A stretch of DNA of 55,892 nt from an uncultured Vampirovibrionales bacterium (GCA_964506805.1 CAZDMD010000001.1:1-55892), one strand, 5' to 3'; shown: positions 7,431 to 49,872, numbered from the stretch's first letter. Notes: generated by a model from the letters alone, not told the origin. Translations and numbers: made by a program.

Positions 7431-7499
7431 ACACGGCGTTTCTTGAGCGTAAATCCTGCAAAGCCTTACTATGACTGGTTCTTCATAAAAAATGGTGGA
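7431..7499 (+). repeat. att-like direct repeat, distal copy, ending in tggtgga (complement of the tRNA-Ala 3' end TCCACCA)
   Basis: Ungapped alignment to 49804-49872: I count 59 of 69 identical positions. The shared block includes ccttactatgactggttctt and the terminal tggtgga. Confidence 0.7.
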
Positions 7500-7595
7500 A
7501 CATTGTAGACAAGTTCCGAACCTACTGTAGAGAAAACGGCGAGTGGTTGTCAATACTTTTAAAGCAAGTCGCCTAAAAAAACAGGAGTCCTTACC

Positions 7596-8186
7596 ATGCA
7601 AAAAGATGCCCTTGAAAAAGCGAAAGCCGATCTCGCTTCCCTTGACGAAGCGAGGAAAGCCAAGTTTAAACGCCTCGAACGGAACCACTTGGAACCCGTC
7701 AAGCTCAAGGTCGGGGAAGGAGGAAATATCGAGCTGAAGAATCCAAAAGCCAACATTGTGGATCATTACATTCAACTACTTGAAACCATTGGCGTGGCGG
7801 ATGATGATGTGCATCACTATGTGCTTACTCAACTGGTTGCGATTATGGGGGAAGACAACATGAATGCAGGGCTTGCCCTTTTAAGAGGTATCGCTCCACA
7901 AGATAGCACCGAAACCATGCTGGCATCTCAACTGGTGTGTGTGAATCATCTTGCGATAACGATGATGCGTCGTAGTCTAAATGAAAAATTACCTGCTGGT
8001 CATGTGGAATCCTTAATCAATCGTAGCACCAAGCTATTAAAGACTTTTACGACCCTAAACGATAGCTTGGTGAAGTATCGTAATCAAGGTAAGCAAGTGA
8101 TTCAAGTGCAACATTTTAATGTGGAAAATCACGGGCAAGCGATGATTGGCAATATCGGGGGAGGGGGAGTCCATGCGAAAACATGA
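7596..8186 (+). CDS. Hypothetical 196-aa protein
   Basis: Long ORF with no recognisable motif. It overlaps the next ORF by 14 nt. Confidence 0.5.
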   Translation: MQKDALEKAKADLASLDEARKAKFKRLERNHLEPVKLKVGEGGNIELKNPKANIVDHYIQLLETIGVADDDVHHYVLTQLVAIMGEDNMNAGLALLRGIAPQDSTETMLASQLVCVNHLAITMMRRSLNEKLPAGHVESLINRSTKLLKTFTTLNDSLVKYRNQGKQVIQVQHFNVENHGQAMIGNIGGGGVHAKT

Positions 8187-8460
8187 AGATCTACCCCTTG
8201 TCCAAACACTTCACCCTTTTAAGCAATGTGGAGCTACCAGTAAAAGAAGCGGTTTACCATGTGTGCAACCTGCGATGAAGAACGGTCGTTGTCGTTTTCA
8301 TGGGGGTAAATCTACAGGAGCAAAAACAGTGGAAGGTAAGCAAGCCCAAAGGCAAGGCAACTTCAAGCATGGCTATTATTCAATTGAGGCTAAACACGAA
8401 CGCCTGCAAGCCACGCTCTTGATGCAAGGTATCCACGAGGCAGTGGAGTTCAGTCCATAG
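8173..8460 (+). CDS. Small Cys-rich HGGxSTG-motif protein
   Basis: CGATSKRSGLPCVQPAMKNGRCRFHGGKSTGAKT. I chose ATG 8173 (MRKHEDL), in frame with the track ORF 8146-8460. Confidence 0.55.
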   Translation: MRKHEDLPLVQTLHPFKQCGATSKRSGLPCVQPAMKNGRCRFHGGKSTGAKTVEGKQAQRQGNFKHGYYSIEAKHERLQATLLMQGIHEAVEFSP

Positions 8461-8547
8461 TCTTGACAAATAAGGCGACATCGTTAATAATGAAGTTGAT
8501 AAGACCTCCCAAGGCTAGGCTTCGGCTCCTCAAACGGGGAGGTTACT

Positions 8548-9519
8548 TTGCTTTTAGGGGTTATAATGTCTGCTAAACAAAAATTCAATAAGCCTCCTCT
8601 TGAATATCAAAAGCAATTAGAAAAGCTTAAACAAAGAGGTATGAGTTTTCAAAATGAAACAGAAGCTATGCACTTGTTAGAGCATGTGAATTATTTTCGC
8701 TTTACCCCCTACTGGATACCCTTTCAAAAAGATGCTTCAAAACATTTATTTCATGAAGGAACCTGTTTTGAACAAATTCAAGCCCTTTACCAATTTGACA
8801 CAAAATTACGTCAACTTCTTTTTGAAGCGATTGAAAAAATAGAAGTATCTATACGTGCTAAATGGGCGTATGAAATTTCTCTAAGGCATGGCGCACATGC
8901 TCATTTACATCTTAAGTTCTTTGTAAGTTCTTCAAAGTACCAAAAAGATTTAAAAGATTTATACAAGGCGATTGATCAAGCTAAAGACAAAGAAGAGTTT
9001 GTGAAACATTATCTCAATAAATATGAAGAGTCTATGCCTCCTATATGGGTGGTGTCGGAAGTTATTTCGCTAGGTTTGCTTTCGAAGCTTTACACCAACT
9101 TAGATGATATAGGGGTGTCGGGATTCAATACGTCTGCTAAAAAAGCTATTGCTGGAGCCTATCAGATTGATTTCGAATTTTTGGAATCATGGCTTCATGT
9201 GTTGACTCAAGTGAGAAACTTTTCAGCACATCATGCACGATTATGGAATCGAGAGTTTAAAAGAACGCCTAAGCTTGTTATAAACAAGCCTAGTGCTTTA
9301 AAGGGTCAATTCGTGCAAGGCTCACGTAGGCTTTACAATGTTCTTGTGTTGATGCTTTATCTGATGGATCAAATTGATAGCAACAGTAGTTTTAGAAAAC
9401 GCCTCAAAACTCTATTGCTTTCAGAACATGGTTACTTGCCTCAAATGGGATTCCCTAGTGATTGGCAGAACAAAACAATATGGCATTTCAAAACTTCTAC
9501 GATGAAAGTCAATCTATAA
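8548..9519 (+). CDS. Abi_2 (AbiD/AbiF-like) abortive-infection family protein
   Basis: HVNYFRFTPYWIPF near the N-terminus and VRNFSAHHARLWNREF later, as in Abi_2/AbiD-F proteins. TTG start 8548 follows ggagg; the alternative ATG is at 8566. Confidence 0.8.
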   Translation: MLLGVIMSAKQKFNKPPLEYQKQLEKLKQRGMSFQNETEAMHLLEHVNYFRFTPYWIPFQKDASKHLFHEGTCFEQIQALYQFDTKLRQLLFEAIEKIEVSIRAKWAYEISLRHGAHAHLHLKFFVSSSKYQKDLKDLYKAIDQAKDKEEFVKHYLNKYEESMPPIWVVSEVISLGLLSKLYTNLDDIGVSGFNTSAKKAIAGAYQIDFEFLESWLHVLTQVRNFSAHHARLWNREFKRTPKLVINKPSALKGQFVQGSRRLYNVLVLMLYLMDQIDSNSSFRKRLKTLLLSEHGYLPQMGFPSDWQNKTIWHFKTSTMKVNL

Positions 9520-9563
9520 ATTGACAAGATATAGCATTTTGTCAATTTATAGGTTGATTTTTT
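9518..9563 (+). terminator. Hairpin plus T-run immediately after the Abi gene
   Basis: aaattgacaa (9518-9527) pairs with ttgtcaattt (9539-9548), followed by gattttttg. Confidence 0.45.
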
Positions 9564-9810
9564 GAATCGGTAGCTTTTACCCAAAACTTCCCATTGACGG
9601 ATGCGTGAACTTTGCCAACATAAGGTTTACACTATATTTCCAAATTGTTTTTACCTCACCCCTCCCCCTATGGCGAAACCTGCGAAAGTTTAGATTCTGA
9701 TTTCACCCAATCACGCCGTGCCAAACTGGTGAGGGCAATGGAGGACTTATCTTCTAACAGCCATAGCTGGTACTGCAGATACAACCCCACCGCTTCCAGA
9801 CGCCTGCCCC

Positions 9811-12800
9811 CTAACTTACGACAAAGCCCGACTCATACGCCCCACGAGGCATGGCAAACGTGGGATCAATCACCAGTACGTCGTCGTAGGTGAGTTGGTA
9901 AAGTTGGTAGACCAACACATCGATTTCGGCTTCAACTTCTTTCAACTGGAAAAGGATGTCTTCTTCAACGTGTAAGCCCTCAAATTGTTGATGCTTTAAA
10001 GCAACGGCTTTATCAAACAAAGATTGAAACTGAATCAATTGTTCTTTTGAAGGAATGATAATGGGCAACTGTCTCGCATCATTTATTTGAAAATGGGAGG
10101 TATTATTTATAAAGTCCTGAACTAAATGGCTAATAAACCTTGAGTTTATAAGAAAAACAAAATATGAGTTTGGTATTTCACACTGGCTAAATAAACTCAT
10201 ACTTAAAACATCATGGACAGATTCGCTTTTGATTCTTGCCTTTAAATATGTGCTATTCACATCTGTCCAGCAGAAACCTGATTTAAAGTAAAATTGAGGA
10301 TTCCGAACAACTGGCATTCCTTCCCCCTTTTTACCTGAATTGTTTTTAAGAAAAGCGACATTGGTTTTAGTCCACGCAATACAAAAAGGGGTTTCTAAAT
10401 ACCAGCGGTTTCCGTCTTTATCCCCTTTGTCATAAGGTACGTAGTACGGTTTTGTTTCTTCAATACCCTTCGTTTTTTCCTCTTCGCTTAGGGTTTCAAC
10501 ATTCGCTATTTCGGTTTCTTCAATCAACTTGTATAAATAACCTTGTCCAAAAATATCCCTTCCATAGCGTTCCTTTAAGTCGTCAAATAATTGGGCTATT
10601 TCTGCTTCATTTAAGTCCGCTAGGTGTAATTTAACCGATTCAAGACTTGTTAAATGTTTGAGTTCGGAAATGTTTGACTTCTTAATCGCTTCTAACAATT
10701 TTTTAGGTCGGCTTTCTACAATGTTGATTGCCCATTTGGTGCTTTTACGCACCGCCACATATTTGCCGTTACTACCTGTTTGTAAGCCTACCCCTCCGTC
10801 AGTTAAGCAACCTAGCAAGGTTACATCGCCTGCCTTTAAACTATCTCGGTAAGGTTGTAGTAAACGTTGGCTTTGACTGATTTGTTTACTGGTTGAAATG
10901 GCTAGCCAGTATTTTTCATGTAATTTTTTTAAGTGATCATTATATCGAGCATAAAAACTTCTATTAGCTTGATGCGGAAAGAAAAAGACTTGATGTATAG
11001 CCTTTCTAAACATCTCGATTTCAACCATTTCTTCCTTAGGTTTATTAAAATCATTAACGGCATCTTTAAAAATAAAACTATAGTTTTCTTTCATAGGCTC
11101 TTTGTTGAAAATTGCAATGGCAGGTGAAACCATTGCATTTTCAAACACATTACTGGTTTTAATCAACTCAACCAGTCTATTTTTTTGCAACAATTCACGG
11201 ATATTTTTCTTTGAGTTGATTGACAAGTAAGTGTCAGAAGTGATATAAGCTAAAGTGCCTTTTGGCTTTAAAATAGCTTCACCTTGAGTAAAAAAGTAAT
11301 TGTATAAATCGTCCGAAATCCCATAGACTTGTTTATACTTTTTCTTTTGTGCTTCAGTCGTACCTTTGTTGGAAACATAAGGAGGATTACCAATTACCAC
11401 ATCAAAGCCATTTTTCTTAAAAACAGTATGAAAAAATAATTTAAAATCAAACTTTTCATAGACGTTCATTTTCTCGGCTTCATCAAAAATATACTTTAAG
11501 TTCTCTTCAATCTCTCTTTTCATAACCTCTTTTTTATCAATGTCTGTACATGAAAATAATTTTTCTTGTAATTTATTTAATCTTTCCTTTCGTTCTAAAG
11601 AAATTGGAACACCGTCTAACCCCACAAGGGAATCTCCAGCCATTAGCTTATAGTCCATGTTGGGTAGGGGGTTAATGCGCAGGTTGGCTTCTAGTTCTTG
11701 ATCCACCACCAAGGCGAGCCAAAAGCGTAGCTTGGCAATTTCAATGGCGCCTGCGTCAATATCCACGCCGTAAATGCAATTTTCAATCGCATGGCGTTTT
11801 AGTTCGTAGGGGGTACGTTTAGGCGAAGGTGGCAAGTGTTCGGTTAAGGCTATTCTCGCTCGCACCAGCTCGTGTAGCATCCCCACGGGGAAGGCTCCTG
11901 AACCAATGGCAGGGTCGCACACGGTAATGGTGGCAAGGGCATCATCGAGGGCGGGGGCGTGGGTTTTAATGCTTTGGGGTAGGGCATCTTCTTTTTCGTG
12001 CTTCTTTTTATAATTGCCCCCTGCCAATTCCACAAAGGTGCGTAGGTCTTCCAAGGGGGTGGCTTCCACTTGGGTGTGCAGGTATTGAATCAGACTTTCT
12101 TGGCACATATAATGCACGATTTCTCGGGGGGTGTAGAAGGCTCCCTTGCTTTTGCGGTCTTTGACTTCCAGCAATTCTTCAAACACTTTGCCGAGCATTT
12201 CAGGGTCGACGGCGACTTCTTTTTCAAGCGGTTCGTCTTCTTTTACCGTAAAATTGTAAAGATTAAACGTGTCAAAAATCTCTTTAAATATCGCATTGTC
12301 AATGGTGATGTCTGTATCACCCCACTTGTACTCTTGCAACGGTTCAAACAGTCCCCCATTCAAAAAGGGAATACGACATTGAGTTGTCTCAAACCATGCC
12401 TCTTTACCTCTGTCAGTATTCAGAGCTTCGTAAAACAGGGGTTCGACAATCTCATTAAAAAAGTTGTCATACGGCTTGTATTTTCGTTCAAAAAGATTTT
12501 GCAGGAAGTTTTTATCACCCGTTCCCCATGCTTGCCCCTTCGCCACCCCGAGCCATCCTTTTTTTTGCAGAAACTGTAAAAACACCAGTTGCCCGAGCGT
12601 CTTTTTCGCAAAGTCGGCTAGGTGAATGTGGTGTTTGTCAAAGTCGGCTTTAATTTTAGCATCCGTGAATTGCAGGCGTTCGAGTTCTTCGTACAAGGCT
12701 TCGTATAGTTTTTTGTACTTTTCAAAGAACTCTTTAGAAACTTTTTCAACACTAAAGGCTTCTTGCAAATCTTCAAGGGTTATAACGGAATTACGCTTAG

Positions 12801-13350
12801 TTGATTTATCTAAACAGGTTAATAATCTTTCTGTTGCAGTGTGGATGCCTTCATTTTTGCCCACTAAAAATGAATGTCGTTTGGCTTGGCTTTTGGCTTT
12901 AAAGTTGATGTTTTTCTTTTTGACTTCATCAAATCGAGTTAGATAATCCAACGTTACAAGGGAAAGTCGCCACTGCTCCAAATCGTCGTCATGTACAAAA
13001 GCAACTAAGGCTCCATCTCGTAATTTACCACCTCGTCCACCTTCTAAATACCACGCCACAAAATCCCTTTGGTTCACTTTGAGTTCTTTTACTGAATGTC
13101 TATTCTGCAAATGAACAACAAGAACATCGATGATTACTTCTCTTGCGTTAGTGTCTTCATACACATATTGATGAATACGTTGATATTTTTTTACAAGTTT
13201 TCTAAATTGAAACTCTATAACATTACCTTTTAACTCCCCTGTTGGATTTGGGTTATCTGTGGGGAGTAGGTTCCGAACAAAGGCTTCAAAATGCTTCGGG
13301 TCAAAACGATTTTTCAATAATTGAGTAAGATCTTCTTTATTAGACATCAT
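9811..13350 (-). CDS. Large Eco57I/type IIG-like N6-adenine DNA methyltransferase with a C-terminal target-recognition region
   Basis: Helical linker LVFLQFLQKKGWLG, FYTPREIV, motif I VCDPAIGSGAFPV, motif IV VIGNPPYV, then about 500 aa of TRD-like sequence. It starts 3 nt after the stop of the helicase gene. Confidence 0.85.
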   Translation of the reverse strand: MMSNKEDLTQLLKNRFDPKHFEAFVRNLLPTDNPNPTGELKGNVIEFQFRKLVKKYQRIHQYVYEDTNAREVIIDVLVVHLQNRHSVKELKVNQRDFVAWYLEGGRGGKLRDGALVAFVHDDDLEQWRLSLVTLDYLTRFDEVKKKNINFKAKSQAKRHSFLVGKNEGIHTATERLLTCLDKSTKRNSVITLEDLQEAFSVEKVSKEFFEKYKKLYEALYEELERLQFTDAKIKADFDKHHIHLADFAKKTLGQLVFLQFLQKKGWLGVAKGQAWGTGDKNFLQNLFERKYKPYDNFFNEIVEPLFYEALNTDRGKEAWFETTQCRIPFLNGGLFEPLQEYKWGDTDITIDNAIFKEIFDTFNLYNFTVKEDEPLEKEVAVDPEMLGKVFEELLEVKDRKSKGAFYTPREIVHYMCQESLIQYLHTQVEATPLEDLRTFVELAGGNYKKKHEKEDALPQSIKTHAPALDDALATITVCDPAIGSGAFPVGMLHELVRARIALTEHLPPSPKRTPYELKRHAIENCIYGVDIDAGAIEIAKLRFWLALVVDQELEANLRINPLPNMDYKLMAGDSLVGLDGVPISLERKERLNKLQEKLFSCTDIDKKEVMKREIEENLKYIFDEAEKMNVYEKFDFKLFFHTVFKKNGFDVVIGNPPYVSNKGTTEAQKKKYKQVYGISDDLYNYFFTQGEAILKPKGTLAYITSDTYLSINSKKNIRELLQKNRLVELIKTSNVFENAMVSPAIAIFNKEPMKENYSFIFKDAVNDFNKPKEEMVEIEMFRKAIHQVFFFPHQANRSFYARYNDHLKKLHEKYWLAISTSKQISQSQRLLQPYRDSLKAGDVTLLGCLTDGGVGLQTGSNGKYVAVRKSTKWAINIVESRPKKLLEAIKKSNISELKHLTSLESVKLHLADLNEAEIAQLFDDLKERYGRDIFGQGYLYKLIEETEIANVETLSEEEKTKGIEETKPYYVPYDKGDKDGNRWYLETPFCIAWTKTNVAFLKNNSGKKGEGMPVVRNPQFYFKSGFCWTDVNSTYLKARIKSESVHDVLSMSLFSQCEIPNSYFVFLINSRFISHLVQDFINNTSHFQINDARQLPIIIPSKEQLIQFQSLFDKAVALKHQQFEGLHVEEDILFQLKEVEAEIDVLVYQLYQLTYDDVLVIDPTFAMPRGAYESGFVVS

Positions 13351-13353
13351 GGG

Positions 13354-16300
13354 TTAGGCATCCTTTTTTGGGGGGATTAAGGCATTAGAAAGAATCACTT
13401 GACGTGGGGCATCTTCCCAGTTACTTTGGTTATTTTTTCCTTTGGGTAGCGGAATCACGTTCATCAAGTGGTGATAGGCTTGAAGGTTGTCTTGCGTCCG
13501 TTCGAGGGCTTCTCTCATTTTTTTAAGTATCGCTGGTGCGTAGCCGTCTTCTTGCACATGTTTTAGCACAATACCCAAGGTGTGGCGTTGTTCATCCACC
13601 AGCTTGGGGTCATTCAGTAAGGCTCTTAAAAATTCATATACTTTTTTGGCAGTGCCTGTTAGCTTCGCATGGCGTTCATGGTTTTCGGCTTCAAGCTCTT
13701 CAGCGGTGTAGTAGTGTTCTTTGTTTGCTTCAAGCATGGGGTGATACTGTGAAGGTCGTTTTTGCTTGGGCGTGCCTTCGGGGCAGTCAAAATAACGCAC
13801 GGCTTCAGCAAAATCGAGCTCTTGGCTTTGCTTGTTGTGGTGGATCACAAACTTTTTATGCCTGCCTTCTTTAAACAGGGTGATTAACGCCTCTTCTTCA
13901 AGCCCTTCAAACGTTCGGGCGGAATAGCATTTTTTAGGGAGCTTTTGTATTCGTTCCCAGCGTGGGGTGTCTTCATCTCGAATACGGCGAATCAATTTAA
14001 GGTATTTTAATTCAGCGTTTGGATCCTCTTCTCCTTCTTGATAGGTGTCCGTATCGTTTAGTTTTGTAAACAAGCCATGCGACGTAAACTCTTCATTTTC
14101 TGAAAGGTATTGAGCATCTTCACCGAGTGCATTATGAAAGGCTTGAATCTTGGCGGTGATGCTTTCTTCAAGGCTTAGGTGTTCGTTCGTTTTAGCCGTT
14201 GGGAAGATGTTGAAAATATGAATATCGCTAAAGGTAGACCCGACACGATTCACCCGTCCCACACGTTGCAAGACTTTAGTGGGGTTCCATGGTAAATCGT
14301 AATTGATGATGATGTTGGATCGGTGCAAGTTGACTCCTTCAGCTAGTACATCGGTGGTGACTAAAATTTGAATGTCATTTTTCTGATAATGCTTGTCGCA
14401 ATTAGGGTCATAATTGGCTTCTATGATTTCACGTCCTTTTTTGCCGTCTTGGCTAGAATAGGACATCACACTTTCACCAAACGCCTCTTTCAACGCTTTT
14501 GTTAAGTCTTCGCCTGTTTCCTTGGATTCGGTGAAAATGAGGAGCTTTTTATTTTTAAGCGTTGAATTCGTTTGAAGTTCCTTGACAAAAGCTTCTTTTT
14601 TGAAGTCGGTTTTTATTTCTTTCCATTGCGATTGAAGGCTCTTCAATAAAGCCAAATCGCCTTCAAGGTCGATCATGAGTATATCTTTGAATTCTTCAAT
14701 TTTATGATGTTTGACTTTCGCATTCTCATCATGTGCATTAACAAACTTAAACAGCTCTTCTTCATTGTCGGCATCAAGGTAATCATAGACATCTATTTTT
14801 TTACTGATAAAAACCTCACCCTTTTTACACATGGCAATAAACTTTTCATAGGATTCAATCATGCGTGCTAGGGTTTTTTCAAAGGCGTACTTACTACTTT
14901 CTAAGCGTTTGACCATACGGCTTTTAATGAATCCCTTCATGTTAATCTCTGGTGCGTCACTGCGATCTGGTTTGTCTATGAGATACAAAAGCGGTGCATA
15001 ACGTGAATAAGTTAATTCTTTAATCGTGTGGATGCTTTTTTCTAAAACGGTATTAGTGGGGTCATCAAACTTATAAATAATTCGTTGCGGTGTTGAAACT
15101 GTTGGAAAATGAAGCCCTTGTTCTTTGATGTCTTCAGCATACTCAGTGATAATATCTTGACGAGTGCGTCGTTCCATAACATGTGTCAGCAATTTTGAGC
15201 GAACTTGTCGAGACGCTTCTTTAACCTGCTTTAGATAGGCATCTGAATCTTTACCCTCTTGTTCTTCAATATGTTTAATATCGCTTTTGAGTTTATTGAA
15301 AAAACCTTTTAGATTTTTAGCATCTTTAAAATCGCTTTTCAAAGGGTTCTGAAATAGAGTTAGCAAAGGATAGAAATCATAAAACGTATTGTTTAAAGGT
15401 GTTGCAGTTACAAGAATAACTTTCTTCCCTTCACAAATCGTTTTTAAATGGGCATATCGTTGTGAACTTTCGGTTCTGAAGCGGTGTGCTTCATCTACGA
15501 TAATGAGATCATAAGGGTTTGTTTTTTTTACGAGACTAGGCAGTTGCCCTGCTGATTCTACTTCATAACTAGAGACATGAAAATCCCTAAAAACGTTTTT
15601 CCAACTTTCAACCACTGGCGGGGGAGCCAGTACTAGAATCTTTCCCTGAAAACTTTGGGCAAACAGTGCCGTAATATAGGTTTTGCCTAAACCCACTACA
15701 TCTGAAATGAAAACACCATTGTACTTCTCTATTTTGTCCCGAATACGTCCAATCACATCTGTTTGATATTTTAGTTTTTTAAAATTAGAGGGTACTTTAA
15801 TATCAGAGTCACGGTCAAAATTCACTTCTTCGCCAAAGTATTCCAATAACGATTTTAAAAATAGATCATAAGGCAAAATATCATCCTTCAACCATGTCTT
15901 GTTTTGAACCGTGTCAACGTAATCTTCTGATACATCAATCGCTTTTTCCCATAAGGCATTAAAACGTTCTTCTGCATAACGAACATCGGCACTATTTTTT
16001 AGTTCTACATTAAACTCATATTGATCTTTCAAACCTGATTCAGAAAAATTGCTAGAACCTGTAATGACACTGCCATAATCCCTGTCGTCTTTAGAATAGC
16101 GTTTAATATAAAGCTTGGCATGGATGTCTTGACTTGGGTAAGCCCGTATTTCAAGTCTTCCTGCTTGAAGAAATGAAATAAACTGCTTAATACCACGTTC
16201 TACATCAAAAGAATCTTCTGAATTATCCATTTCAGTAACAAGTGCTTCAGCAAAGGATTCTTTTGTTTTTTTATGACTTTCATAATCAAGTTTTTGTTGG

Positions 16301-16533: not shown

Positions 16534-16564
16534 CTTAAACTTTCATGTGATTTAAAAAATAGGC

Positions 16565-17281
16565 CTATTGGGCTATAATATCACACGCAAGCTCTAAAGG
16601 AAAAATCCATGAAACAAGCTGTTTATGGTTCATAGAAACTTTCTTCGCATGTTCTAATCCATGCTTCAACTCTTCAACTTCACAAGGATTTGAACTTAAA
16701 CGAGTATTTTTAATCTGCACTGTACCTGTTTCAGGATTTCTACGATATTCCGTACTTACTATAATATCAGAAACAGCGAGATTTATCATTTTCAAAAATT
16801 CGTTCATTTCGATGTAAAACAAACCTTCGTTTTTTGTTTTGTCTGAATTAAATAAAAAACCTGTAAAGATAAGACTTTCATTAATAGGATTGTCCGTCAC
16901 AACTGGGTCTAAGGTTATCTGAAAAATGAATGAGTGTCTTAACTGGTCACAAATAAAAGAAGCCTTTCGTCGTTCTTTATGTGTTTTGTCTGCATGGTAG
17001 AACTCATCCCATCGATGATGATTCATAATGTCTATTTTGCCTGATCCTTCTATGGATTTACGAGGTAACTTTTCTAAGGAAAATTGTTCTTTTTTAAACT
17101 CATCCGAAAGCTTGGTTTCCCAATTTAAAAGTTTATTGATGATATGTGCGACAAAAAAAACATCAAACTCCAAGTCAAAATAAGAAGACTCATAATTATG
17201 TGATGGTTGGGTGGATTTTTCAAGTATGTCTTTTGCTAAAGAATCTAACTTTACCTTATAGTAACTAGACTCATGCATCAT
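16565..17281 (-). CDS. Hypothetical 238-aa protein, first gene of the helicase/methylase operon
   Basis: ORF ending 31 nt before the helicase start on the same strand. I recognise no motif. Confidence 0.55.
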   Translation of the reverse strand: MMHESSYYKVKLDSLAKDILEKSTQPSHNYESSYFDLEFDVFFVAHIINKLLNWETKLSDEFKKEQFSLEKLPRKSIEGSGKIDIMNHHRWDEFYHADKTHKERRKASFICDQLRHSFIFQITLDPVVTDNPINESLIFTGFLFNSDKTKNEGLFYIEMNEFLKMINLAVSDIIVSTEYRRNPETGTVQIKNTRLSSNPCEVEELKHGLEHAKKVSMNHKQLVSWIFPLELACDIIAQ

Positions 17282-17292
17282 AAGATCCCCAA

Positions 17293-17313: not shown

Positions 17314-17348
17314 ATAAAACTGATAGTATTCTAGCCATACAAGAATAA

Positions 17349-41635: not shown

Positions 41636-41644
41636 CTTCTTTAT

Positions 41645-42271
41645 TTAGACATCATCTTCTACGAGTTTAAAGGCTCTGTAGTAGTTATCATCGGTTATTC
41701 CTGCAAAGACTTTGCTTTTGAACAATCTTAAGTCTTTTTGATCATAAGCACCAGGATAAAACATTATCACTGGAACTTTATCCAAGACGTGATGTAAGTT
41801 ATTCAAAATTGTGTGTGACCTAACAAGTGGCCATACTTTGCCTACCCCTGTTATTAAAACAAGATTTGCGTTTTTAACTTTTTCCTCAATTAAAGCTATG
41901 AATCTTTGAGGCTTCAATAGAGCAGTAAGCCCTTTTTCTAGCCTTAAAGTCCCATCTTTTTCTTCCATTAATGGTATTTCATCAAGGATAGTTTTATCTT
42001 TAATTTTTTGAGAATCAAGAATCTTAATCATAAGTTCAAATAGATCTAATTCTACAGGTTTTATTATTGAACTATCAAATTTATAACTTTGAATAAATTG
42101 TTCAACAAAACTTCTAGCTTTAATCTCGTCCTTTGGGTCATAATCAAAAATATAAAACCCAAGCTCACCGCCTTGTGTTTTATTATTCAGAAAACCATCG
42201 GTTTCAATTATTTCTTTTATTCTGTCAAATCGTTTTCCTATACTACTCAATCTAACCTCCCAACATCGCAT
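41645..42271 (-). CDS. brxB: BREX protein BrxB (DUF1788-like)
   Basis: About 200 aa with GFYIFDYDPKDE, positioned between brxA and brxC. It overlaps brxA by 20 nt, so the start is uncertain. Confidence 0.8.
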   Translation of the reverse strand: MRCWEVRLSSIGKRFDRIKEIIETDGFLNNKTQGGELGFYIFDYDPKDEIKARSFVEQFIQSYKFDSSIIKPVELDLFELMIKILDSQKIKDKTILDEIPLMEEKDGTLRLEKGLTALLKPQRFIALIEEKVKNANLVLITGVGKVWPLVRSHTILNNLHHVLDKVPVIMFYPGAYDQKDLRLFKSKVFAGITDDNYYRAFKLVEDDV

Positions 42272-42845
42272 TTAAATATTCACGATCTCCGATGGTCTTT
42301 AAATGATCAGATAGTTTCGAATCTATTATAGGAGGTTCAATCTCAAGCTTTACTGTGTCCTTAATATAACCAGCCTCAATTAAAATTTTAGTGTAAACTT
42401 GCTTTAATTTTGTTATAGTCGCATCTGTGAAGTTAGATACTATTTCAGATTGTTCAGCTTTAATATCTAAAAAGTTTTGAATAACGGCTTTGTTTAGTTG
42501 TGGCTGTAAAGACTTGTATCTCTCACAAACCACTTGTTGCATAAATTCAAAGAACATAAAATCAGTCTTCATAATTGAATATAACGCAACTAATCTGCCA
42601 GTTTCGTTTGATGAGTTAACTAGCATTTGAATCAACTCTTCATCTAAAATTTCAAGTCTTTCTATAACAGCTCCCAACCTTTTAGGCACACTTTTGATTG
42701 TTTTGTACTGAAATAAATTATTTTCGATTACTATTTTTTTTATGTCCTGATCTTTGATTCCAGCTGACTTTAATTTAGCAACTTCTTTGAGTTCTAAATA
42801 TAAAAAAGGATTTCCTGTTATTTTCGCACTATATTTTTTTTGCAT
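42252..42845 (-). CDS. brxA: BREX protein BrxA (DUF1819-like)
   Basis: 197-aa first gene of the operon. The call rests mainly on size and canonical BREX-1 order. Confidence 0.75.
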   Translation of the reverse strand: MQKKYSAKITGNPFLYLELKEVAKLKSAGIKDQDIKKIVIENNLFQYKTIKSVPKRLGAVIERLEILDEELIQMLVNSSNETGRLVALYSIMKTDFMFFEFMQQVVCERYKSLQPQLNKAVIQNFLDIKAEQSEIVSNFTDATITKLKQVYTKILIEAGYIKDTVKLEIEPPIIDSKLSDHLKTIGDREYLNAMLGG

Positions 42846-43177: not shown

Positions 43178-43275
43178 ACAGAGTTTTTTGTACGTTGTTG
43201 CTACGATTAGTTTGTTCAGTCCTGTAGCTTTATCTGAACCCACTCACAAAAGAATCTAGACTATTCGTCTAGGCT
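43178..43275 (-). repeat. Dispersed intergenic repeat (MITE-like), copy 1, inverted orientation
   Basis: tacgttgttgctacgattagtttgttcagtc...cacaaaagaatctag...cgtctaggct is the near reverse complement of 44185-44270. Confidence 0.7.
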
Positions 43276-43389
43276 ACTATTCCAAAAGATCTGGTGAATT
43301 CAAGAAACCTCTACTTTACAGGGGAAGACCACATAGCTATAATAATAAAAGTAACCCCATTAAACCCCAACCGTTTAGGAGCTTTTAAA

Positions 43390-44097
43390 ATGAGCCTTCT
43401 CGCCTTTGTTCAGAAAATTGAATCGGCTTTAAACTCGAAAGAAGTGAAAGCCTTTGAAAAGCAAGTGAACGCTTTCGTCCACAAACTCAATCAGATCGAC
43501 TGGCAAAAAGCCGAAGAGCATTTTAAAATAAACGCAGATATTTCTGAAAGTATCCTCGCTGAACTCGATCGTAAACAGATCGACAGCTCGGTATTAGACG
43601 GCATCAGCTTTCCTGAGGTGCTTGAACTCTACGTGCTGTCTACTCAGCAAAACTTGCCCTTTGGGGAATTACTTGAAGATAGTCTCGATCTCTTTAAAAA
43701 GGTGAACTATGACGCTTCTAAAACCTATCTCCGCGTATTAAAAAAACGAAGCACTCGCACGATAGAGGACCTCAAAGAGGTTAAACTCCCCGCAGACGTG
43801 CTGGTGAAGCTAAAAACCCACGATGCTTATATAAAGGAGCTATTTCAGGTCGCTGTTCAGAACTATACGGAAGGCAAGATCTCCCTTCCAGAAACGGAAC
43901 GCAAGATTCTCAAGGCATTGAAAAAGAATAGATGGCTAACGAATAAGGCACTGGCTGAACAACTTAATTATAGTGAACGCACTATTGAAGCCAACTGTTC
44001 CAAAATAAGAGAACGCTTTGGCTTAGATGACCTAAAAGATAAAAATAGCAAACGACGCATCGTGATCGATTTGGCACAATTCTTGACGCTCGACTAA
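43390..44097 (+). CDS. 235-aa protein with a C-terminal LuxR/GerE-type HTH; conserved anchor gene of the island family
   Basis: C-terminus ETERKILKALKKNRWLTNKALAEQLNYSERTIEANCSKIRERFGL. ATG 43390 lies 8 nt after aggag. The track ORF starts upstream at 43294, but the 4057-4139 remnant conserves only from the RBS onward. Confidence 0.7.
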   Translation: MSLLAFVQKIESALNSKEVKAFEKQVNAFVHKLNQIDWQKAEEHFKINADISESILAELDRKQIDSSVLDGISFPEVLELYVLSTQQNLPFGELLEDSLDLFKKVNYDASKTYLRVLKKRSTRTIEDLKEVKLPADVLVKLKTHDAYIKELFQVAVQNYTEGKISLPETERKILKALKKNRWLTNKALAEQLNYSERTIEANCSKIRERFGLDDLKDKNSKRRIVIDLAQFLTLD

Positions 44098-44146
44098 AGT
44101 CTGCGGTTATCCACATTTTAAATTGCTTCTCAATCGTGTATGGTGA

Positions 44147-44301
44147 AATTATAGTCGTTTTCAGAGTTTTTTGTAGAGATGGCTAGACGAGGAGCCTAGA
44201 TTATTTTGTGAATGGAGTGTAGACAGAACTACATGACTGAACAAAATACATCGTAGCGACAACGTATAGACGCTCTACAAAAAATTATGGGAACGACTAT
44301 A
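44147..44301 (+). repeat. Dispersed intergenic repeat (MITE-like), copy 2, with terminal inverted repeats
   Basis: Left end aattatagtcgttttcagagttttttgtagag, right end ctctacaaaaaattatgggaacgactata. The core ctagacgaggagcctagattattttgtga...catgactgaacaaaa..atcgtagcgacaa is shared with 51450-51535. Confidence 0.75.
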
Positions 44302-44329
44302 TCACATCAACCTAAAGGAGCCTCCCCCA

Positions 44330-45640
44330 ATGACCTTACACCTTGAGTATTTAAACACAACGACGATTCAGCCTTACAAGCAGAACCCACGGATTCACAA
44401 GAGTAAACAAATTGCTCAAATTGCCCATTCGATTCAAACCTTTGCGTTTAACAACCCTATTCTCATTGACGAAAAGAATGAAATCATCGCAGGTCACGGC
44501 AGATGGCTGGCCGCTCAACAGCTTCACTTGAGTGAGGTACCCGTGATCAAATTATTGCATTTGAGTGAAGCCCAGAAAAAAGCCTATCGCATCGCCGACA
44601 ACAAACTCACGGAAAACGGTCAATGGGACGTTGACTTATTGAAGATCGAGTTCTTGGAGCTAGAAGCGTTGGATCTAAACTTTGGCTTGGAGATTACAGG
44701 CTTTGACATCGCCGACATTGACTTGATTCTGGATGCACAGCTCGCAGACAAAAACACCCCGTTAGATGAACAAGCCAATGCCGTTCCTTTTGTACCCGAG
44801 CATGAAATTGTCACAACCCTAGGTGACACATGGCTTTTAGGTAAGCATAAAATCATCTGCGGCGATGCCTTAGTACCCGAAACCTATCAAGCCTTATGCC
44901 AAGACAAAAAAGCGAGTATGGTATTTACCGACCCACCCTACAACGTCAAGGTGGAGGGACATATTGGCGGCTTGGGGAAAATCAAGCATAAGGAGTTTCA
45001 AATGGCATCAGGGGAAATGTCTTCCGCTGAATTTCAGGCTTTTTTGCAGAAAAACTTCACCCTCCTAAAGGCTTTTTCAAAGAATGGATCGCTCCACTAT
45101 ATTTGCATGGATTGGCGACATATTAAGGAGATCATTGAAGCAGGCACCGCCGTGTATGACGATTTTAAAAACCTCTGCGTGTGGAATAAGGACAACGGCG
45201 GCATGGGGTCGCTCTATCGTTCCAAGCATGAACTCGTCTTTGTCTTCAAACACGGCAACCGCTCGCATCACAACAATGTAGAACTCGGTTCACACGGACG
45301 CTACCGAACCAATGTGTGGGATTACCCTGGTGTCAACTCCTTTGGCGGAGATAAAGACAAGCTCAAAATGCACCCCACCGTCAAACCTGTTGAAATGGTC
45401 AAAGATGCCATTTTAGATGTGTCCGCTCGGAGTGAAATCATACTCGATGCGTTTTTAGGCTCAGGGACAACATTAATCGCCGCAGAACAATGCGGACGGA
45501 TTTGTTACGGTATCGAGTTAGAACCGCTCTATGTCGATACCACGATTCGTCGTTGGCAGGACATTAGCGGGCAATCTGCGATTCACCAAGCGACAGGCCA
45601 AACATACCGAGAACTGCTGGAGGACAAAATCAATGCTTAA
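44330..45640 (+). CDS. ParB-like N-terminal domain fused to a beta-class N4/N6 DNA methyltransferase
   Basis: ParB/Srx-like IQPYKQNPRIHKSKQIAQIAHSIQTFAFNNPILIDEKNEIIAGHGRWLAA. Methylase motif IV VFTDPPYN and motif I ILDAFLGSGTTLIAAE. Confidence 0.88.
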   Translation: MTLHLEYLNTTTIQPYKQNPRIHKSKQIAQIAHSIQTFAFNNPILIDEKNEIIAGHGRWLAAQQLHLSEVPVIKLLHLSEAQKKAYRIADNKLTENGQWDVDLLKIEFLELEALDLNFGLEITGFDIADIDLILDAQLADKNTPLDEQANAVPFVPEHEIVTTLGDTWLLGKHKIICGDALVPETYQALCQDKKASMVFTDPPYNVKVEGHIGGLGKIKHKEFQMASGEMSSAEFQAFLQKNFTLLKAFSKNGSLHYICMDWRHIKEIIEAGTAVYDDFKNLCVWNKDNGGMGSLYRSKHELVFVFKHGNRSHHNNVELGSHGRYRTNVWDYPGVNSFGGDKDKLKMHPTVKPVEMVKDAILDVSARSEIILDAFLGSGTTLIAAEQCGRICYGIELEPLYVDTTIRRWQDISGQSAIHQATGQTYRELLEDKINA

Positions 45641-46025
45641 CGACTACGACATCGGCTACGGAAAACCTCCAGAAGAAAAACGCTTTAAACAGGGGAAATC
45701 AGGTAATCCGCAGGGGCGTCCCAAAGGGAGCAAAAATACCTACACCTTACTCAATGACATTCTTAACCAAAAAATCGTCGTCTCAGAAGGCGATGAAAAA
45801 ATCAAAATATCTAAGAAAATGGCGATGCTCACACAACTGGTCAATAAAGGCGTCAAAGGCGATATAAAAGCCATTACCGCCTTACTGCCTCACCTCTTAA
45901 TCGCCGATTTAAAAGAAGAAGAACGTCATCAGATACGAGAACTTTTAAATCAGGATGATCAATCGATTATTGCCGACTATCTTTCTCGGTATCATGGAAC
46001 TGCTGAGGACGAAGCCCATGAGTAA
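45633..46025 (+). CDS. DUF5681-like small protein, probable small terminase subunit
   Basis: MLNDYDIGYGKPPEEKRFKQGKSGNPQGRPKGSKN is the DUF5681 N-terminal signature. ATG 45633 overlaps the methylase stop, and the gene lies directly upstream of TerL. Confidence 0.65.
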   Translation: MLNDYDIGYGKPPEEKRFKQGKSGNPQGRPKGSKNTYTLLNDILNQKIVVSEGDEKIKISKKMAMLTQLVNKGVKGDIKAITALLPHLLIADLKEEERHQIRELLNQDDQSIIADYLSRYHGTAEDEAHE

Positions 46026-47454
46026 AAGCATTTTAAACGCCATCTTACGAAGCGACTTCACGGCCTTTGTCCAAAAAGTCTTTCTTGAAGTCTCCCCCAA
46101 TGCTCAGTATCTCGGTAACTGGCATATCGATTTAATTTGCCATGAACTCGAAGCCATGTTGGCAGGTCAAAACCCTCGACTCATTGTCAATATACCCCCA
46201 CGCTACATGAAGTCTATTATTTGCTCTATTGCCTTTCCTGCCTATATTTTAGGGAAGAATCCGAAAGCCACGATTATCGCCGTCAGTTATAACGAAGACT
46301 TGTCGCAGAAGTTGGCGTTAGATTGTAAACGGGTCATGGAAAGTCAGTGGTATCGGGATATTTTTCCGCATACCCGATTATCCAAAAATAAAAAAGCCAT
46401 TGCGGATTTTGAAACCAGCCGTGGAGGCGGTCGTTTTTCAACTTCTGTCAATGGCACCTTAACAGGTCGAGGAGCCGATTACCTGATTATAGATGACCCG
46501 ATTAAACCCGACGATGCCCTATCCGATCTCCTTAGAAAAAAGACAAATGATTGGTACGGCAGTACCCTCTATTCAAGGCTTAACAACAAAAACGACGGCA
46601 AAATCATGGTGATTATGCAACGCTTGCACGACGAAGATTTCACAGGCTACTTGCTTCAAAGCGACAAAACCTTTAAGCACTTAAAAATACCCGCCATAGC
46701 CGAAAGCAATGAAATATGGTCATTCAAGCATAAAACAGTAACGCGTCAAAAAGGTGAAGCCCTCCACCCTGAACGAGAGTCCCTCTCCAAGCTCATAGAA
46801 GCCAAAAAGCAAATGGGAGAATACCATTTTTCAGGTCAGTACCAACAAAACCCAGCTCCACGAGACGGCGGGATTATTAAGAAAAAATGGTTTAAATACT
46901 ATGATCCGAACGCCCTGTTTAAAGCCATCGCTGAGAAAGAAATCAGAATCAAATCTATTTTCCAGTCGTGGGATACCGCCAGTAAAATAGAGCAATACAA
47001 CGATTATTCCGTGTGTCTGACGGTATTGAGAGATAGAAAAGGCGTGCATTATATTTTAGACGCTTACCGAGAAAAACTAGAGTTCCCTCAACTCGTCAAT
47101 CAAGTCATTCAACGCTATAAATCCGCAGAAACGACCTATGGTCGACAAATAGACGTCTTGATTGAAGATAAGAACTCAGGCATCCAACTCATTCAAACCT
47201 TGAAAACCCAACATTATATCACGGCAAAAGCCGTGAAGCCTGAACATGATAAACGCACCCGACTCATGGCCGTGTCGCATTTGATTGAAAACGGAAGCTG
47301 TTTATTTCCTAACAACGACCCCCACTGGCTTCTTGAGTTTGAATCTGAACTACTCCGCTTTCCCAATGGTAAATATGACGACCAGTGCGATGCCTTAAGC
47401 CAAGTCTTGGTGCAACCCAATACCTACACCTTCGTAGATGCGTTTGGCGATTAA
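46018..47454 (+). CDS. terL: Phage terminase large subunit (TerL) homologue
   Basis: P-loop region RLIVNIPPRYMKS, Walker B ADYLIIDDPIK, nuclease-domain acidic motifs FQSWDTASK and KYDDQCDALSQ. ATG 46018 (MSKSIL) overlaps the preceding gene. Confidence 0.8.
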   Translation: MSKSILNAILRSDFTAFVQKVFLEVSPNAQYLGNWHIDLICHELEAMLAGQNPRLIVNIPPRYMKSIICSIAFPAYILGKNPKATIIAVSYNEDLSQKLALDCKRVMESQWYRDIFPHTRLSKNKKAIADFETSRGGGRFSTSVNGTLTGRGADYLIIDDPIKPDDALSDLLRKKTNDWYGSTLYSRLNNKNDGKIMVIMQRLHDEDFTGYLLQSDKTFKHLKIPAIAESNEIWSFKHKTVTRQKGEALHPERESLSKLIEAKKQMGEYHFSGQYQQNPAPRDGGIIKKKWFKYYDPNALFKAIAEKEIRIKSIFQSWDTASKIEQYNDYSVCLTVLRDRKGVHYILDAYREKLEFPQLVNQVIQRYKSAETTYGRQIDVLIEDKNSGIQLIQTLKTQHYITAKAVKPEHDKRTRLMAVSHLIENGSCLFPNNDPHWLLEFESELLRFPNGKYDDQCDALSQVLVQPNTYTFVDAFGD

Positions 47455-47535
47455 ACTCACTCATATAAAGAGGATTTCTCTGGTTTTTGTACAAAAAACC
47501 TTGATACTTCACCCCTTCCAAGTGATGAATAGAGC

Positions 47536-47997
47536 ATGAGAAAAACACCGCTCGATTTACCCAACACCCTAGAAGCCCTCAATGCCTTGGAAGCTGAAGA
47601 CGTCAAGCACTTATGGCAACGCTATTTTAAAATCCCCCCCAAGCACCTCAAAAGTGCAATGCTCAAACCCCTTTGGTATGAAATTCAGTGTGAACGTCAA
47701 AAGTTGAAACTCCCTCAAAAAGTCATCACCAAATTGAACCGCTATTCAAAAGACGTGAATCATAAGGTCACACGGGCGTGTAAAGTCAAGTACACGCTGT
47801 CCACAGGCACCGACATCATTAAGATGTTTAAAAACAAAGAATACAAAGTGAGCGTCCTAGGCGAAAACCAGTTTTTGTATAATCAGCTGACCTACAACAG
47901 CCTTTCTGCGGTGGCAAAAGTCATTTGCGGTCATAAAGTTTCAGGCAATGATTTCTTTGGCTTAAACAACAAAAAGGTGCGTTATGAAAATCAATAA
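47536..47997 (+). CDS. DUF2924-like protein (usual partner of large serine recombinases)
   Basis: LWQRYFKIPPKHLKSAMLKPLWYEIQCE and YKV...FLYNQLTYNSLSAVAKVICGHKVSGNDFFGL. It overlaps the recombinase start by 14 nt. Confidence 0.7.
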   Translation: MRKTPLDLPNTLEALNALEAEDVKHLWQRYFKIPPKHLKSAMLKPLWYEIQCERQKLKLPQKVITKLNRYSKDVNHKVTRACKVKYTLSTGTDIIKMFKNKEYKVSVLGENQFLYNQLTYNSLSAVAKVICGHKVSGNDFFGLNNKKVRYENQ

Positions 47998-49504
47998 CTG
48001 TGCGATTTATATTCGAAAGTCCAGTGAAAAAGGCTTGGAACAAGATTTTAACTCCCTCCATAATCAGGAAGAGGCCTGTAAAGCCTATATTTTATCCCAA
48101 GCCTATAACGGCTGGCAACATTACAAAACCTATGAAGATGGCGGACTCTCAGGCGGGAGTATGAAGCGTCCTGCCTTACAAGCGCTCTTAAAGGATATGG
48201 AAAATGGGGTCATTCAAACCGTCGTGGTTTATAAGGTCGACCGATTGTCTCGTTCCATTATCGATTTTTACCACATGATGCAAACCTTTGACAAGCATAA
48301 TTGTAGTTTCGTGTCGATTACGCAATCCTTTGACACCTCTAACTCAATGGGCAAGCTGACCTTGAATATGCTGCTGTCCTTTGCACAATTTGAACGAGAG
48401 GTGTCGTCTGAACGCATTCGAGATAAGATGCAAGCCAGCAAAGCCAAAGGCTTGTGGATGGGAGGGCCTTGCCCCTTGGGCTATACTCTTGAAGACAAAA
48501 AACTGCAGATTCATCCCAAAGAAGCAGAGCTGGTTCGGCAGATATTTACGCAATACCTCAAACTTGAATCCGTCCATACGCTCAGGCAATGGCTCAAAGA
48601 CGAGGGCTACCAAGGGAAACGAGGCGTGGCGTTTAGTCTTAGTGGACTACACCGCCTTTTAAGCAATCCGCTTTATACGGGTAAAGTCGTTCATAAACGA
48701 CTCGGTAAAATCTATGACGGTCAACACGAACCAATCCTTTCAGATGAATTATTTGAAGCCGTGCAACTCAAGTTGTCACAACGCTTTAAAGAAAAGGAAT
48801 CTCGAAAGGCCTATACCTTTCAAGAAAACCTACTAAACGGTATTTTTTACACCGAAGCAGGCGAAGGCTTTAAGTATTCCAATGCTAAAAAACAACAAAA
48901 ACACTTTAATTATTACTACGTCAAAGGAACCTACTTGGCCGCCGAACAAATCGAGACACAGGTGATTCAAGCACTGGCTTTCTTGGATTTATCTGAAGAT
49001 GCCTTACGGTCTTCGCTGAGTCAAGTGATTTATCGCAAAGCAGACCCTCTCGCTGAACTAGAAATACATCTGACCCTCAATGATTCGCTCGGTCACTTGA
49101 AATTGCCTCCTCATGCCGTGTTGAGCATGGATCAGAAAATCCTTATTTTAAGCACCCATCTGCTGATTAACAATCAGGCCCAAACCACTTTACGAGGAAC
49201 CCCAAACAAAAGCATCCTCTCCATCCACGAGATGAATGAGCAGGTAATTCAAGGAATTTCCTTGGCCTGGCATTACAGAAGTCTGTGGAAGCAAGGCGTC
49301 AGCGTTGAAGACATTGCCAAACAGGAATCCACAGGCAAGCGAAAAATACAGAAATATCTGGCTTTAACCCTCCTCTCTCCACCGATTATTGAAGCCCTAC
49401 TGAACTACCAAAACCCTCAACATTTTACCCTCACCCAACTCATTACACTCGCCGAACAAACCCCTGATTTTGACCAACAAGCACTCGCCTACTTTGGCAT
49501 GTAA
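47984..49504 (+). CDS. Large serine recombinase (resolvase/invertase N-terminal domain plus recombinase domain)
   Basis: CAIYIRKSSEKG (catalytic Ser context), YEDGGLSGGSMKRPALQALL, VVVYKVDRLSRS, FAQFEREVSSERIRDK, PCPLGY. Confidence 0.9.
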   Translation: MKINNCAIYIRKSSEKGLEQDFNSLHNQEEACKAYILSQAYNGWQHYKTYEDGGLSGGSMKRPALQALLKDMENGVIQTVVVYKVDRLSRSIIDFYHMMQTFDKHNCSFVSITQSFDTSNSMGKLTLNMLLSFAQFEREVSSERIRDKMQASKAKGLWMGGPCPLGYTLEDKKLQIHPKEAELVRQIFTQYLKLESVHTLRQWLKDEGYQGKRGVAFSLSGLHRLLSNPLYTGKVVHKRLGKIYDGQHEPILSDELFEAVQLKLSQRFKEKESRKAYTFQENLLNGIFYTEAGEGFKYSNAKKQQKHFNYYYVKGTYLAAEQIETQVIQALAFLDLSEDALRSSLSQVIYRKADPLAELEIHLTLNDSLGHLKLPPHAVLSMDQKILILSTHLLINNQAQTTLRGTPNKSILSIHEMNEQVIQGISLAWHYRSLWKQGVSVEDIAKQESTGKRKIQKYLALTLLSPPIIEALLNYQNPQHFTLTQLITLAEQTPDFDQQALAYFGM

Positions 49505-49544
49505 ATACAGGGGTTATCTTTATTCTAAACACCTTAAATAGCGT

Positions 49545-49693
49545 GTATAGTTTTCGATAGATGAAATAGGCTATGAGACTACTCTAGGAGCCTAGATTTT
49601 TTTTGTGCGGGCGTGTACATAGACGTACATAACCAAACAAAAAAATCGTAGCGACAACGAAGAGGCCATAGACCATTTTATCTAATAGTCGTG
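49545..49693 (+). repeat. Dispersed intergenic repeat (MITE-like), copy 3, more diverged
   Basis: ctaggagcctagattttttttgtg....aaatcgtagcgacaacg, with ends tatagttttcg / taatagtcgtg. Confidence 0.6.
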
Positions 49694-49803
49694 CCTTTTG
49701 AAATTAGGGCAATGTATAGAAACGCCGAAAAAAGCGGATACCTGAGCCATTAAAAAGGTATACCTGAATCTAAGGTGAGTACCCATCCGTCTTAGACTCG
49801 CAC

Positions 49804-49872
49804 ACACGGCGTTTTTTGAGTGTGAATCCTGTAAATCCTTACTATGACTGGTTCTTAAAGGAAAGTGGTGGA
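49804..49872 (+). repeat. att-like direct repeat, proximal copy, overlapping the last 7 nt of tRNA-Ala
   Basis: See 7431-7499. The last 7 nt (49866-49872) are the tRNA 3' end including CCA. Confidence 0.7.

Follow-up and report, generated by a model that had tools for sequence, protein, structure and literature searches.

Where does a mobile island behind a transfer RNA (tRNA) gene begin and end, and is it a single unit or several? We address this question for the 55,892-nt sequence CAZDMD010000001.1 of an uncultured Vampirovibrionales bacterium (GCA_964506805.1), hereafter called the window, which is the entire contig C1 of a metagenome-assembled genome (MAG; 1.87 Mb in 165 contigs, 94.7% complete) that its relatives place in Vampirovibrio. 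Defence genes and the gene of a large serine recombinase (LSR) lie here behind the 3′ end of tRNA-Ala(GGC). An initial annotation had noticed a 69-nt direct repeat ending in the tRNA 3′ end and read its two copies as the limits of one ~42-kb island. Comparison with the genomes G001–G008 (G000 being the assembly of the window itself, and G007 the closed single-contig genome CP050876.1 of Vampirovibrio sp. OL03a, the nearest closed relative) leads to a different map. It is likely that at least three integrative units are stacked behind the 3′ end of tRNA-Ala(GGC): the LSR island E1, the recombinase-less E2 and an older unit, E3.

The observation from which the initial annotation started is confirmed, and its interpretation is supported in part. 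The segments 7431-7499 and 49804-49872 align without gaps with 59/69 identities (blastn 85.5% over 69 nt); at the base composition of the window the probability of at least 59 matches in 69 is 8e-25, so that the window should contain ~1e-15 such pairs by chance. The last seven bases of each copy are TGGTGGA (7493-7499 and 49866-49872), the complement of the 3′ end of tRNA-Ala(GGC), past which the right copy continues into the intact tRNA gene and the left copy diverges. The 69-mer has two copies in the entire assembly, both at these junctions, and is thus not a dispersed repeat. A tandem array at the tRNA gene, as had been proposed, also holds, with three junctions: copies of TGGTGGA on one strand begin at 7493, 17305 and 49866, and the middle junction, at 17305-17313, had been overlooked. 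The last 9 nt of tRNA-Ala are CCTCCACCA, read on the plus strand as TGGTGGAGG at 49866-49874 (junction J1). The window contains this core two times in all (0.16 expected), the other occurrence being J2 at 17305-17313, and the leftmost TGGTGGA forms J3.

The part of the repeat outside the tRNA (R; R1 in the right copy and R3 in the left) is, judged by sequence comparison, the island's own recombinase-proximal end, neither chromosome nor a product of integration, because R runs on into the same LSR module beside tRNA-Ala in relatives. R1 directly abuts the intact tRNA-Ala(GGC) and is conserved beside tRNA-Ala(GGC) or tRNA-Ala(TGC) in five other Vampirovibrio genomes. It adjoins tRNA-Ala(GGC) in G008, G001 and G006 and tRNA-Ala(TGC), likewise intact, in G007 and G004, where the contig with tRNA-Ala(GGC) stops just past R. 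Across these relatives the LSR module, the spacer behind the recombinase gene and R follow one another without interruption, at 77-93% identity. The initial annotation had rightly assigned this part of the repeat to the island and not to the native chromosome, and its reading of the sequence left of 7431 as a relative of the island also stands, since R3 and a 5′ fragment of a helix-turn-helix (HTH) gene are found there in the correct order and orientation, with the same variant in G001:C1. The idea that the whole 69-nt repeat was duplicated by integration does not fit, as the 9-nt core TGGTGGAGG alone is common to all junction types. We also considered R as a terminator of the tRNA in this clade and rejected it, R1 and R3 folding no better than shuffled sequences (z = 0.43 and 0.95). 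In G007 the end of an insertion sequence (IS) with >30 identical copies in that genome has shortened R to ~30 nt (L025/L026, at 363.8 kb and 494.2 kb).

The far end of E1 is found at J2. An arm of ~200 nt (the type-1 distal arm) lies behind this core, and 10 junctions that differ in their left flanks have homologous arms beginning immediately past TGGTGGA(GG). When 21 junctions were aligned on TGGTGGA, four classes appeared with TGGTGGA(GG) alone in common: an attL-like class (R, core, tRNA), a tandem, attP-like class (R, core, distal arm), an attR-like class (unrelated flank, core, distal arm) and an empty class (A-rich flank, core, tRNA). A model attP was built by joining window positions 49505-49874 to 17314-17560, and in G007 (1623192-1623769) LSR, R, TGGTGGAGG and distal arm are contiguous and 86% identical to this model across the joint. 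The G007 joint is a tandem junction with a second full-length LSR behind it, and its arm is homologous to 17314-17520, not to the sequence from 7500 onward; further joints bridged by the model are those in G003:C26, G001:C18 and G001:C1 and at two other loci of G007. Furthermore, over 5.1 kb the flank past the G008:C12 arm matches G005:C7 at 95.6% identity; in G005:C7 it directly abuts tRNA-Ala(TGC), and the homology of this occupied/empty pair breaks at the 9-nt core. Occupied and empty states of a tRNA-Ala site are thus seen among relatives; an empty state of this exact junction was not found in two metagenome scans. Because the core and the conserved arm lie there, and because of the G007 joint and the occupied/empty boundary, we place the true far end at 17305, so that E1 extends from 17305 to 49874.

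This makes it improbable that a single ~42-kb island reaches from 7431 or 7500 to 49872, with 69-nt attachment (att) duplications created on integration and an older island to its left. Such a reading can call on the repeat itself, which is genuine, has no further copy in the genome and stops at the tRNA 3′ end, and on the direct repeats of ~50 bp that flank cassettes of Ccr-type LSRs (PMC6222049). It would, however, leave a complete attR-type junction (17305-17520) inside the island, with the conserved distal arm beginning at the core there and 7500-17304 forming a separate unit whose ends are mutually adjacent in other genomes. J3, having R on its left, is of the same type as J1 (R, core, target) and not its partner. 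The left limit of the repeat at 7431 is the start of a replacement and is set by the hsdS stop codon (7428-7430), the homology being ~20 nt longer in G001:C1.

The distal arm contains three or four CAGGGAAT-like motifs within ~170 nt and, 14-37 nt from the core, a TATTCT-N9-AGAATA dyad that is almost invariant. Motifs and dyad are conserved in relatives and may be binding sites of an accessory protein. On the R side, the short repeats at 49736-49767, which the initial annotation had offered as recombinase half-sites, are unlikely to have this role; they lie ~100-130 nt from the core and the second alone is conserved as a motif. By eye, GGCTAGAAT and GGTTCTTAA suggest a centre of dyad symmetry in attP near the first core bases, but spacings on the attB side are inconsistent and we make no claim on it.

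The array in G008:C12 (L017/L027) starts at tRNA-Ala(GGC) with its upstream context and ends at the downstream flank of tRNA-Ala(TGC) known from G005:C7 (L113). Either the islands at the two tRNA-Ala loci were rearranged with one another, or this MAG contig is chimeric. The window is itself a metagenome-assembled contig, and one may ask with this example in mind whether it joins unrelated pieces at its repeats. This is scarcely credible, since repeats of 86% identity over 69 nt and a core of 9 nt are too weak to mislead an assembler, and the closed genome G007 has the same tandem junctions.

E2, which lies between two core copies, is regarded as a separate unit because both of its ends are unit ends in other genomes. 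Its left end (the type-2 arm and the gene of a 196-aa protein) is ~90% identical in G001:C14, G008:C15, G002:C65 and G006:C250, the matches beginning at the core. In G008:C15 and G001:C14 its two ends, that is the type-2 arm and the start of the gene of a 238-aa protein, are adjacent with scars derived from tRNA-Ile alone between them (a tRNA-Ile trailer motif and, in G001, additionally a 54-nt tRNA-Ile 3′ half). The junction of R, TGGTGGA and type-2 arm seen at J3 recurs in G008:C12 with a different R allele, and the T-rich end of E2 by the tRNA resembles an ordinary attB flank. No recombinase signal was obtained in the 238-aa, 196-aa and 104-aa proteins of E2 with Pfam, PHROGs, NCBIfam and PADLOC; the 238-aa protein has 8 homologues, none of them named. 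Between AbiD and the 3′ end of the methylase gene lies a 57-nt imperfect palindrome (9505-9561, 81% self-complementary), probably a two-way terminator.

Either E2 may have been inserted between the tRNA and E3, or its type-2 arm with TCCACCA may be a secondary attachment site. In the second case the array is the same, but E2 would not have inserted behind the tRNA by itself, and the defence island would carry a secondary, tRNA-like attB. Either LSR elements would have entered this site, or the LSR would have captured an E2 circle at a tandem junction of R, core and arm; a single exchange between attP and a pseudo-attB would then have given rise to both J2 and J3. Several features speak for such a site: the uncut E2 junction consists of an A-run, TGGTGA and the type-2 arm, oriented as a real attB; the type-2 arm of G002:C65 leads through TGGTGGA to a T-rich flank other than R and looks unoccupied, and the window and G008:C12 join the arm to two different R alleles and look occupied; and the arm has GTTCCGAACC, resembling the tRNA T-arm ATTCGAACC. 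We still consider it unlikely, given that the resemblance to tRNA is weak and its spacing differs, that the scars in G001:C14 and G008:C15 come from tRNA-Ile and not from tRNA-Ala, that no E2 circle is known, and that E2 encodes no recombinase.

Left of J3, E3 appears to be an older relative of E1 that has lost its recombinase. It has the order and orientation of the E1 backbone, but restriction-modification genes stand where E1 encodes recombinase and packaging functions. G001:C1 shares the methylase, hsdS and R, with core and distal arm behind them, at 85-88% identity, and the breakpoint between HTH fragment and methylase (3983-4211) is 92% identical in G003:C26 and present in G001 too. The initial annotation had described a dead copy of the HTH gene at 4057-4139; the copy is real, but it is longer (3990-4139) and belongs to a shared variant instead of being private to this locus. 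A comparable replacement exists at the tRNA-Ala(GGC) locus of G007, where 41 nt of R and an HTH fragment enclose an MmeI-like gene. The 3-kb contig C146 of the window's own assembly encodes an MmeI-like restriction-methylase with ~80% protein identity to this module-replacing gene of G007, and it may come from the unassembled continuation of this or another array.

The intact island E1 has a backbone in the order HTH, ParB-methylase, DUF5681, large terminase (TerL), DUF2924, LSR and the 62-nt R. The backbone genes (43294-49504) are all on the plus strand with every reading frame intact, and the segment 43306-49538 is 88-93% identical in G007, G008, G001 and G006. The LSR gene is intact and is the sole copy in the assembly. 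Its product has the catalytic resolvase domain with the serine nucleophile (PF00239 at residues 7-157, the sequence beginning ...AIYIRKSSEKG), followed by PF07508 at residues 178-267. Its curated partial matches are CcrB and XisF, CcrB being the best (1.6e-44), and its C-terminus (415-500) shows weak matches to a PHROG 'recombinase' family and a ParB-type domain. The segment 44330-47454 has 92-94% nucleotide identity to copies on IMG/VR contigs. IMG/VR contigs with a 96% identical TerL were set aside as a source of att sites, being uninformative backbone fragments that end at a miniature inverted-repeat transposable element (MITE). This MITE (~138 nt) is repeated dozens of times per genome throughout the genus; in the window, one copy stands in the spacer behind the recombinase gene, and others lie on either side of the HTH gene.

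Sequence identities further support a horizontal spread of E1 components: between species the identity reaches 88-93% for the backbone and 95-96% for umuDC (95.5-96% at the nucleotide level in G003 and G008 for the latter), as against 76-80% for ribBA among the species compared. The GC content of E1 is 37.7% versus 44.6% for the genome. The tRNA-Ala(TGC) gene on contig C59 of the window's own assembly is unoccupied. G005 was tried as a guide to the native downstream neighbour of tRNA-Ala(GGC) and rejected, as the synteny differs and the flanks match contigs C2 and C13 of the window's own assembly. TerL and DUF5681 are present without a virion module: the window gave no match to capsid, portal or tail families (Pfam, PHROG), and there was no primase or replication family among 34 scanned ORFs (open reading frames), and no conjugation genes among the window ORFs (Pfam); the regulator is one uncharacterised HTH protein. 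Together with the MITE and IS insertions in and around the module and the lack of an observed excision product, this absence of capsid, replication and conjugation genes might suggest a decayed prophage or a fixed defence island, with repeats left by old duplications or homologous recombination and a recombinase that is inactive or irrelevant. We judge this highly improbable, because several species have this backbone with both arms, around different cargo and at two tRNA-Ala genes, the identity of backbone and arms is well above that of core genes, the boundary between occupied and empty states falls precisely at the core, and no backbone reading frame is broken. Avs2-type sensors are reported to recognise phage large terminases, and E1 encodes both Avs2 and its own TerL, which raises the question of how this TerL avoids triggering Avs2.

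Features of the window, from left to right (coordinates from the first nucleotide of the window; gene calls of E2 from Pfam, PADLOC and NCBIfam)
Feature	Coordinates	Strand	Size, basis or remark
E3, visible part	1-7430 (unit to 7492)		two restriction-modification gene sets
DUF3800	2-430	minus	Pfam/PADLOC
hsdS	406-1668	minus	Pfam/PADLOC
GIY-YIG	1647-2069	minus	Pfam/PADLOC
hsdM	2340-3881	minus	Pfam/PADLOC
HTH gene 5′ fragment	3990-4139		150 nt; 80.5% match to 43299-43457
Type I-like methylase	4204-6030	plus	Pfam/PADLOC
hsdS	6057-7430	plus	Pfam/PADLOC
R3, recombinase-proximal end of E3	7431-7492	plus	59/69 identity to R1 + core
J3, TGGTGGA core between R3 and type-2 arm	7493-7499	plus	
E2	7500-17304		9.8 kb; TGGTGGA on both sides
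Type-2 arm	7500-7595		96 nt
196-aa orphan	7596-8186	plus	
HGGxSTG protein	8146-8460	plus	
AbiD	8548-9519	plus	
Type IIG-like methylase	9811-13350	minus	
HKD-SNF2 helicase	13354-16533	minus	
238-aa orphan	16565-17281	minus	
J2, core at far end of E1 (attR-type)	17305-17313	plus	identical to 49866-49874 core
E1, intact island	17305-49874		32.6 kb; core to core
Type-1 distal arm of E1 (P side of attP)	17314-17520	plus	~200 nt; homologues in relatives
umuD + umuC, beside distal arm	17719-19478	plus	Pfam
PDC-S37/Hhe-like helicase-nuclease	19943-25177	plus	Pfam, PADLOC
Avs2	25277-29776	minus	Pfam; PADLOC E = 0
Type 1 BREX (bacteriophage exclusion), brxL-pglZ-pglX-brxC-brxB-brxA	29888-42845	minus	Pfam, PADLOC
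HTH regulator ('island anchor gene'), inner end of backbone	43294-44097	plus	Pfam HTH families
ParB-methyltransferase	44330-45640	plus	Pfam
DUF5681 protein	45531-46025	plus	Pfam
Terminase large subunit	45955-47454	plus	PHROG TerL 2.5e-110
DUF2924 protein	47536-47997	plus	Pfam 1e-22; gene overlaps recombinase start
Large serine recombinase	47984-49504	plus	506 aa; Pfam Resolvase 6.4e-39, Recombinase 7.4e-20; PHROG integrase 1.6e-99
Conserved spacer, recombinase stop codon to R1	49505-49803	plus	alignment of 12 family members
R1, recombinase-proximal end of E1 (P′ side of attP)	49804-49865	plus	62 nt; contiguous with recombinase gene
tRNA-Ala(GGC), integration target	49866-49941	minus	ARAGORN
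138-nt MITE copies	49546-49684, 51407-51569, 44162-44301, 43191-43293		
Core genes right of tRNA: glycosyltransferase-like ORF, ribBA, ribH, sua5			

In the arrangement that we propose, the attP of E1 would read R - TGGTGGAGG - distal arm, and strand exchange by the LSR would take place within the 9-nt core, identical to the CCTCCACCA end of tRNA-Ala; this exchange would regenerate the tRNA end and leave the core alone duplicated. By known LSR behaviour the excision of E1 would take place between J1 and J2, and J1 and J3, being of the same junction type, should not be partners. E3 would be the oldest of the units and E1 the most recent. This scheme is built on the three junctions, on R and distal arms that are homologous between genomes and on one occupied/empty pair in a relative; the LSR presumably made the junctions, with a crossover within the core, and E1 may still be mobile.

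Several points weigh against this arrangement. Neither a circular form nor an empty site was found for the E1 of this genome. The occupied/empty pair comes from genomes of relatives and from tRNA-Ala(TGC), not from the site in the window, and two metagenome scans, with an exact 36-mer and with a gapped pattern, returned no joint of E2, core and tRNA-Ala such as the site would have without E1. The contig stops inside E3, short of the left end of the array. Closely related LSRs are found with two unrelated types of distal arm, type 1 here and type 2 in G008. To our knowledge, attP and attL are no substrate pair for canonical phage LSRs, and the stacking of units therefore needs a permissive, Ccr-like enzyme or another route, for instance a target restored by the intervening unit. 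In the LSR no zinc ribbon family was found in Pfam at E <= 0.01 and no cysteine cluster past residue 270, and the att-site rules of phage LSRs may therefore not transfer to this enzyme.

A sister clade of the LSR, 72-80% identical, is found at tRNA-Ile(GAT), tRNA-Ala(TGC) and tRNA-Ala(GGC), and therefore the family targets the CCACCA ends of tRNAs more generally. Its loci L033, L036 and L038 belong to Vampirovibrio sp. DET50b and a Melainabacteria MAG, and the equivalent of R in this clade is a strong terminator-like hairpin right behind the tRNA (z = -5.6). One could go further and regard the E1 family as an undescribed type of capsid-less LSR defence island in Vampirovibrionia, with its own terminase, targeting the CCACCA of tRNA-Ala and tRNA-Ile and forming arrays of trans-mobilisable derivatives that keep both att arms; neighbouring islands may in addition carry a portable, tRNA-like secondary attachment site in the form of the type-2 arm. 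This is a possibility that we find doubtful at present. If it were true, one intact copy could move the recombinase-less derivatives in trans. The locus in any case now has a revised map, which gives the limits of the mobile unit and its attachment site at a hotspot of defence islands in an uncultured predator related to cyanobacteria. BREX, Avs2 and restriction systems are exchanged here between Vampirovibrio species on a shared recombinase/terminase backbone, and the ~50 bp around TGGTGGAGG make a candidate attP/attB pair for a tRNA-end-targeting LSR without the usual zinc ribbon.

Four known systems invite comparison. Phage satellites such as the phage-inducible chromosomal islands (PICIs) are similar in having the integrase by the att site, packaging without capsid genes, a size near that of a phage genome and defence cargo. 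In contrast to these, E1 encodes a large terminase where a small terminase or capsid-remodelling genes would be usual; we identified in it neither a replicon nor a regulator that senses a helper, and no helper phage is known. In streptococcal accretion of integrative and conjugative elements (ICEs) and cis-mobilisable elements (CIMEs), an autonomous element stands in tandem with recombinase-less, att-ended units that can be moved in trans. These elements use tyrosine integrases and conjugation. The locus shares the tandem of an autonomous element with recombinase-less, att-ended units, and mobilisation in trans is here putative; unlike the streptococcal elements, it has an LSR and not a tyrosine integrase, and the window is without conjugation genes.

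Further parallels are found in the staphylococcal cassette chromosome (SCC; SCCmec when carrying mec) and the Enterococcus cassette chromosome (ECC), whose composites stack multiple att copies and recombinase-less remnants at one site (PMC6222049). E1 resembles SCCmec and ECC as an LSR-driven island of ~30 kb with variable cargo at the 3′ end of a conserved gene, and CcrB is the best curated partial match of its LSR (1.6e-44). It differs from SCCmec in its target, which is the CCA end of tRNA-Ala (tRNA-Ile in the sister clade) and not rlmH, in having one LSR with a DUF2924 protein instead of a CcrA/CcrB pair, in an LSR score of 152 bits against the CcrB family cut-off of 900, and in a backbone that additionally has TerL and a ParB-methylase. 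The tycheposons of Prochlorococcus are cargo islands at tRNA genes in which newer integrations push older ones outward with partial tRNA copies between them, and degenerate remnants abound; the recombinase is of the large serine type in a minority of them, and packaging genes occur in some (bioRxiv 10.1101/2020.12.28.424599). The likeness to our locus thus extends from cargo islands at a tRNA gene, outward stacking and remnants to the LSR and packaging genes of some members. Most tycheposons, however, have tyrosine recombinases and replication genes, of which none were found here, and the separators in our array are 7-9 nt of tRNA in a non-photosynthetic Vampirovibrio host. The stacking of islands at a tRNA gene with target scars between them is a well-known phenomenon, and the array behind tRNA-Ala(GGC) is comparable in this respect to SCC/ECC composites and to tycheposons.

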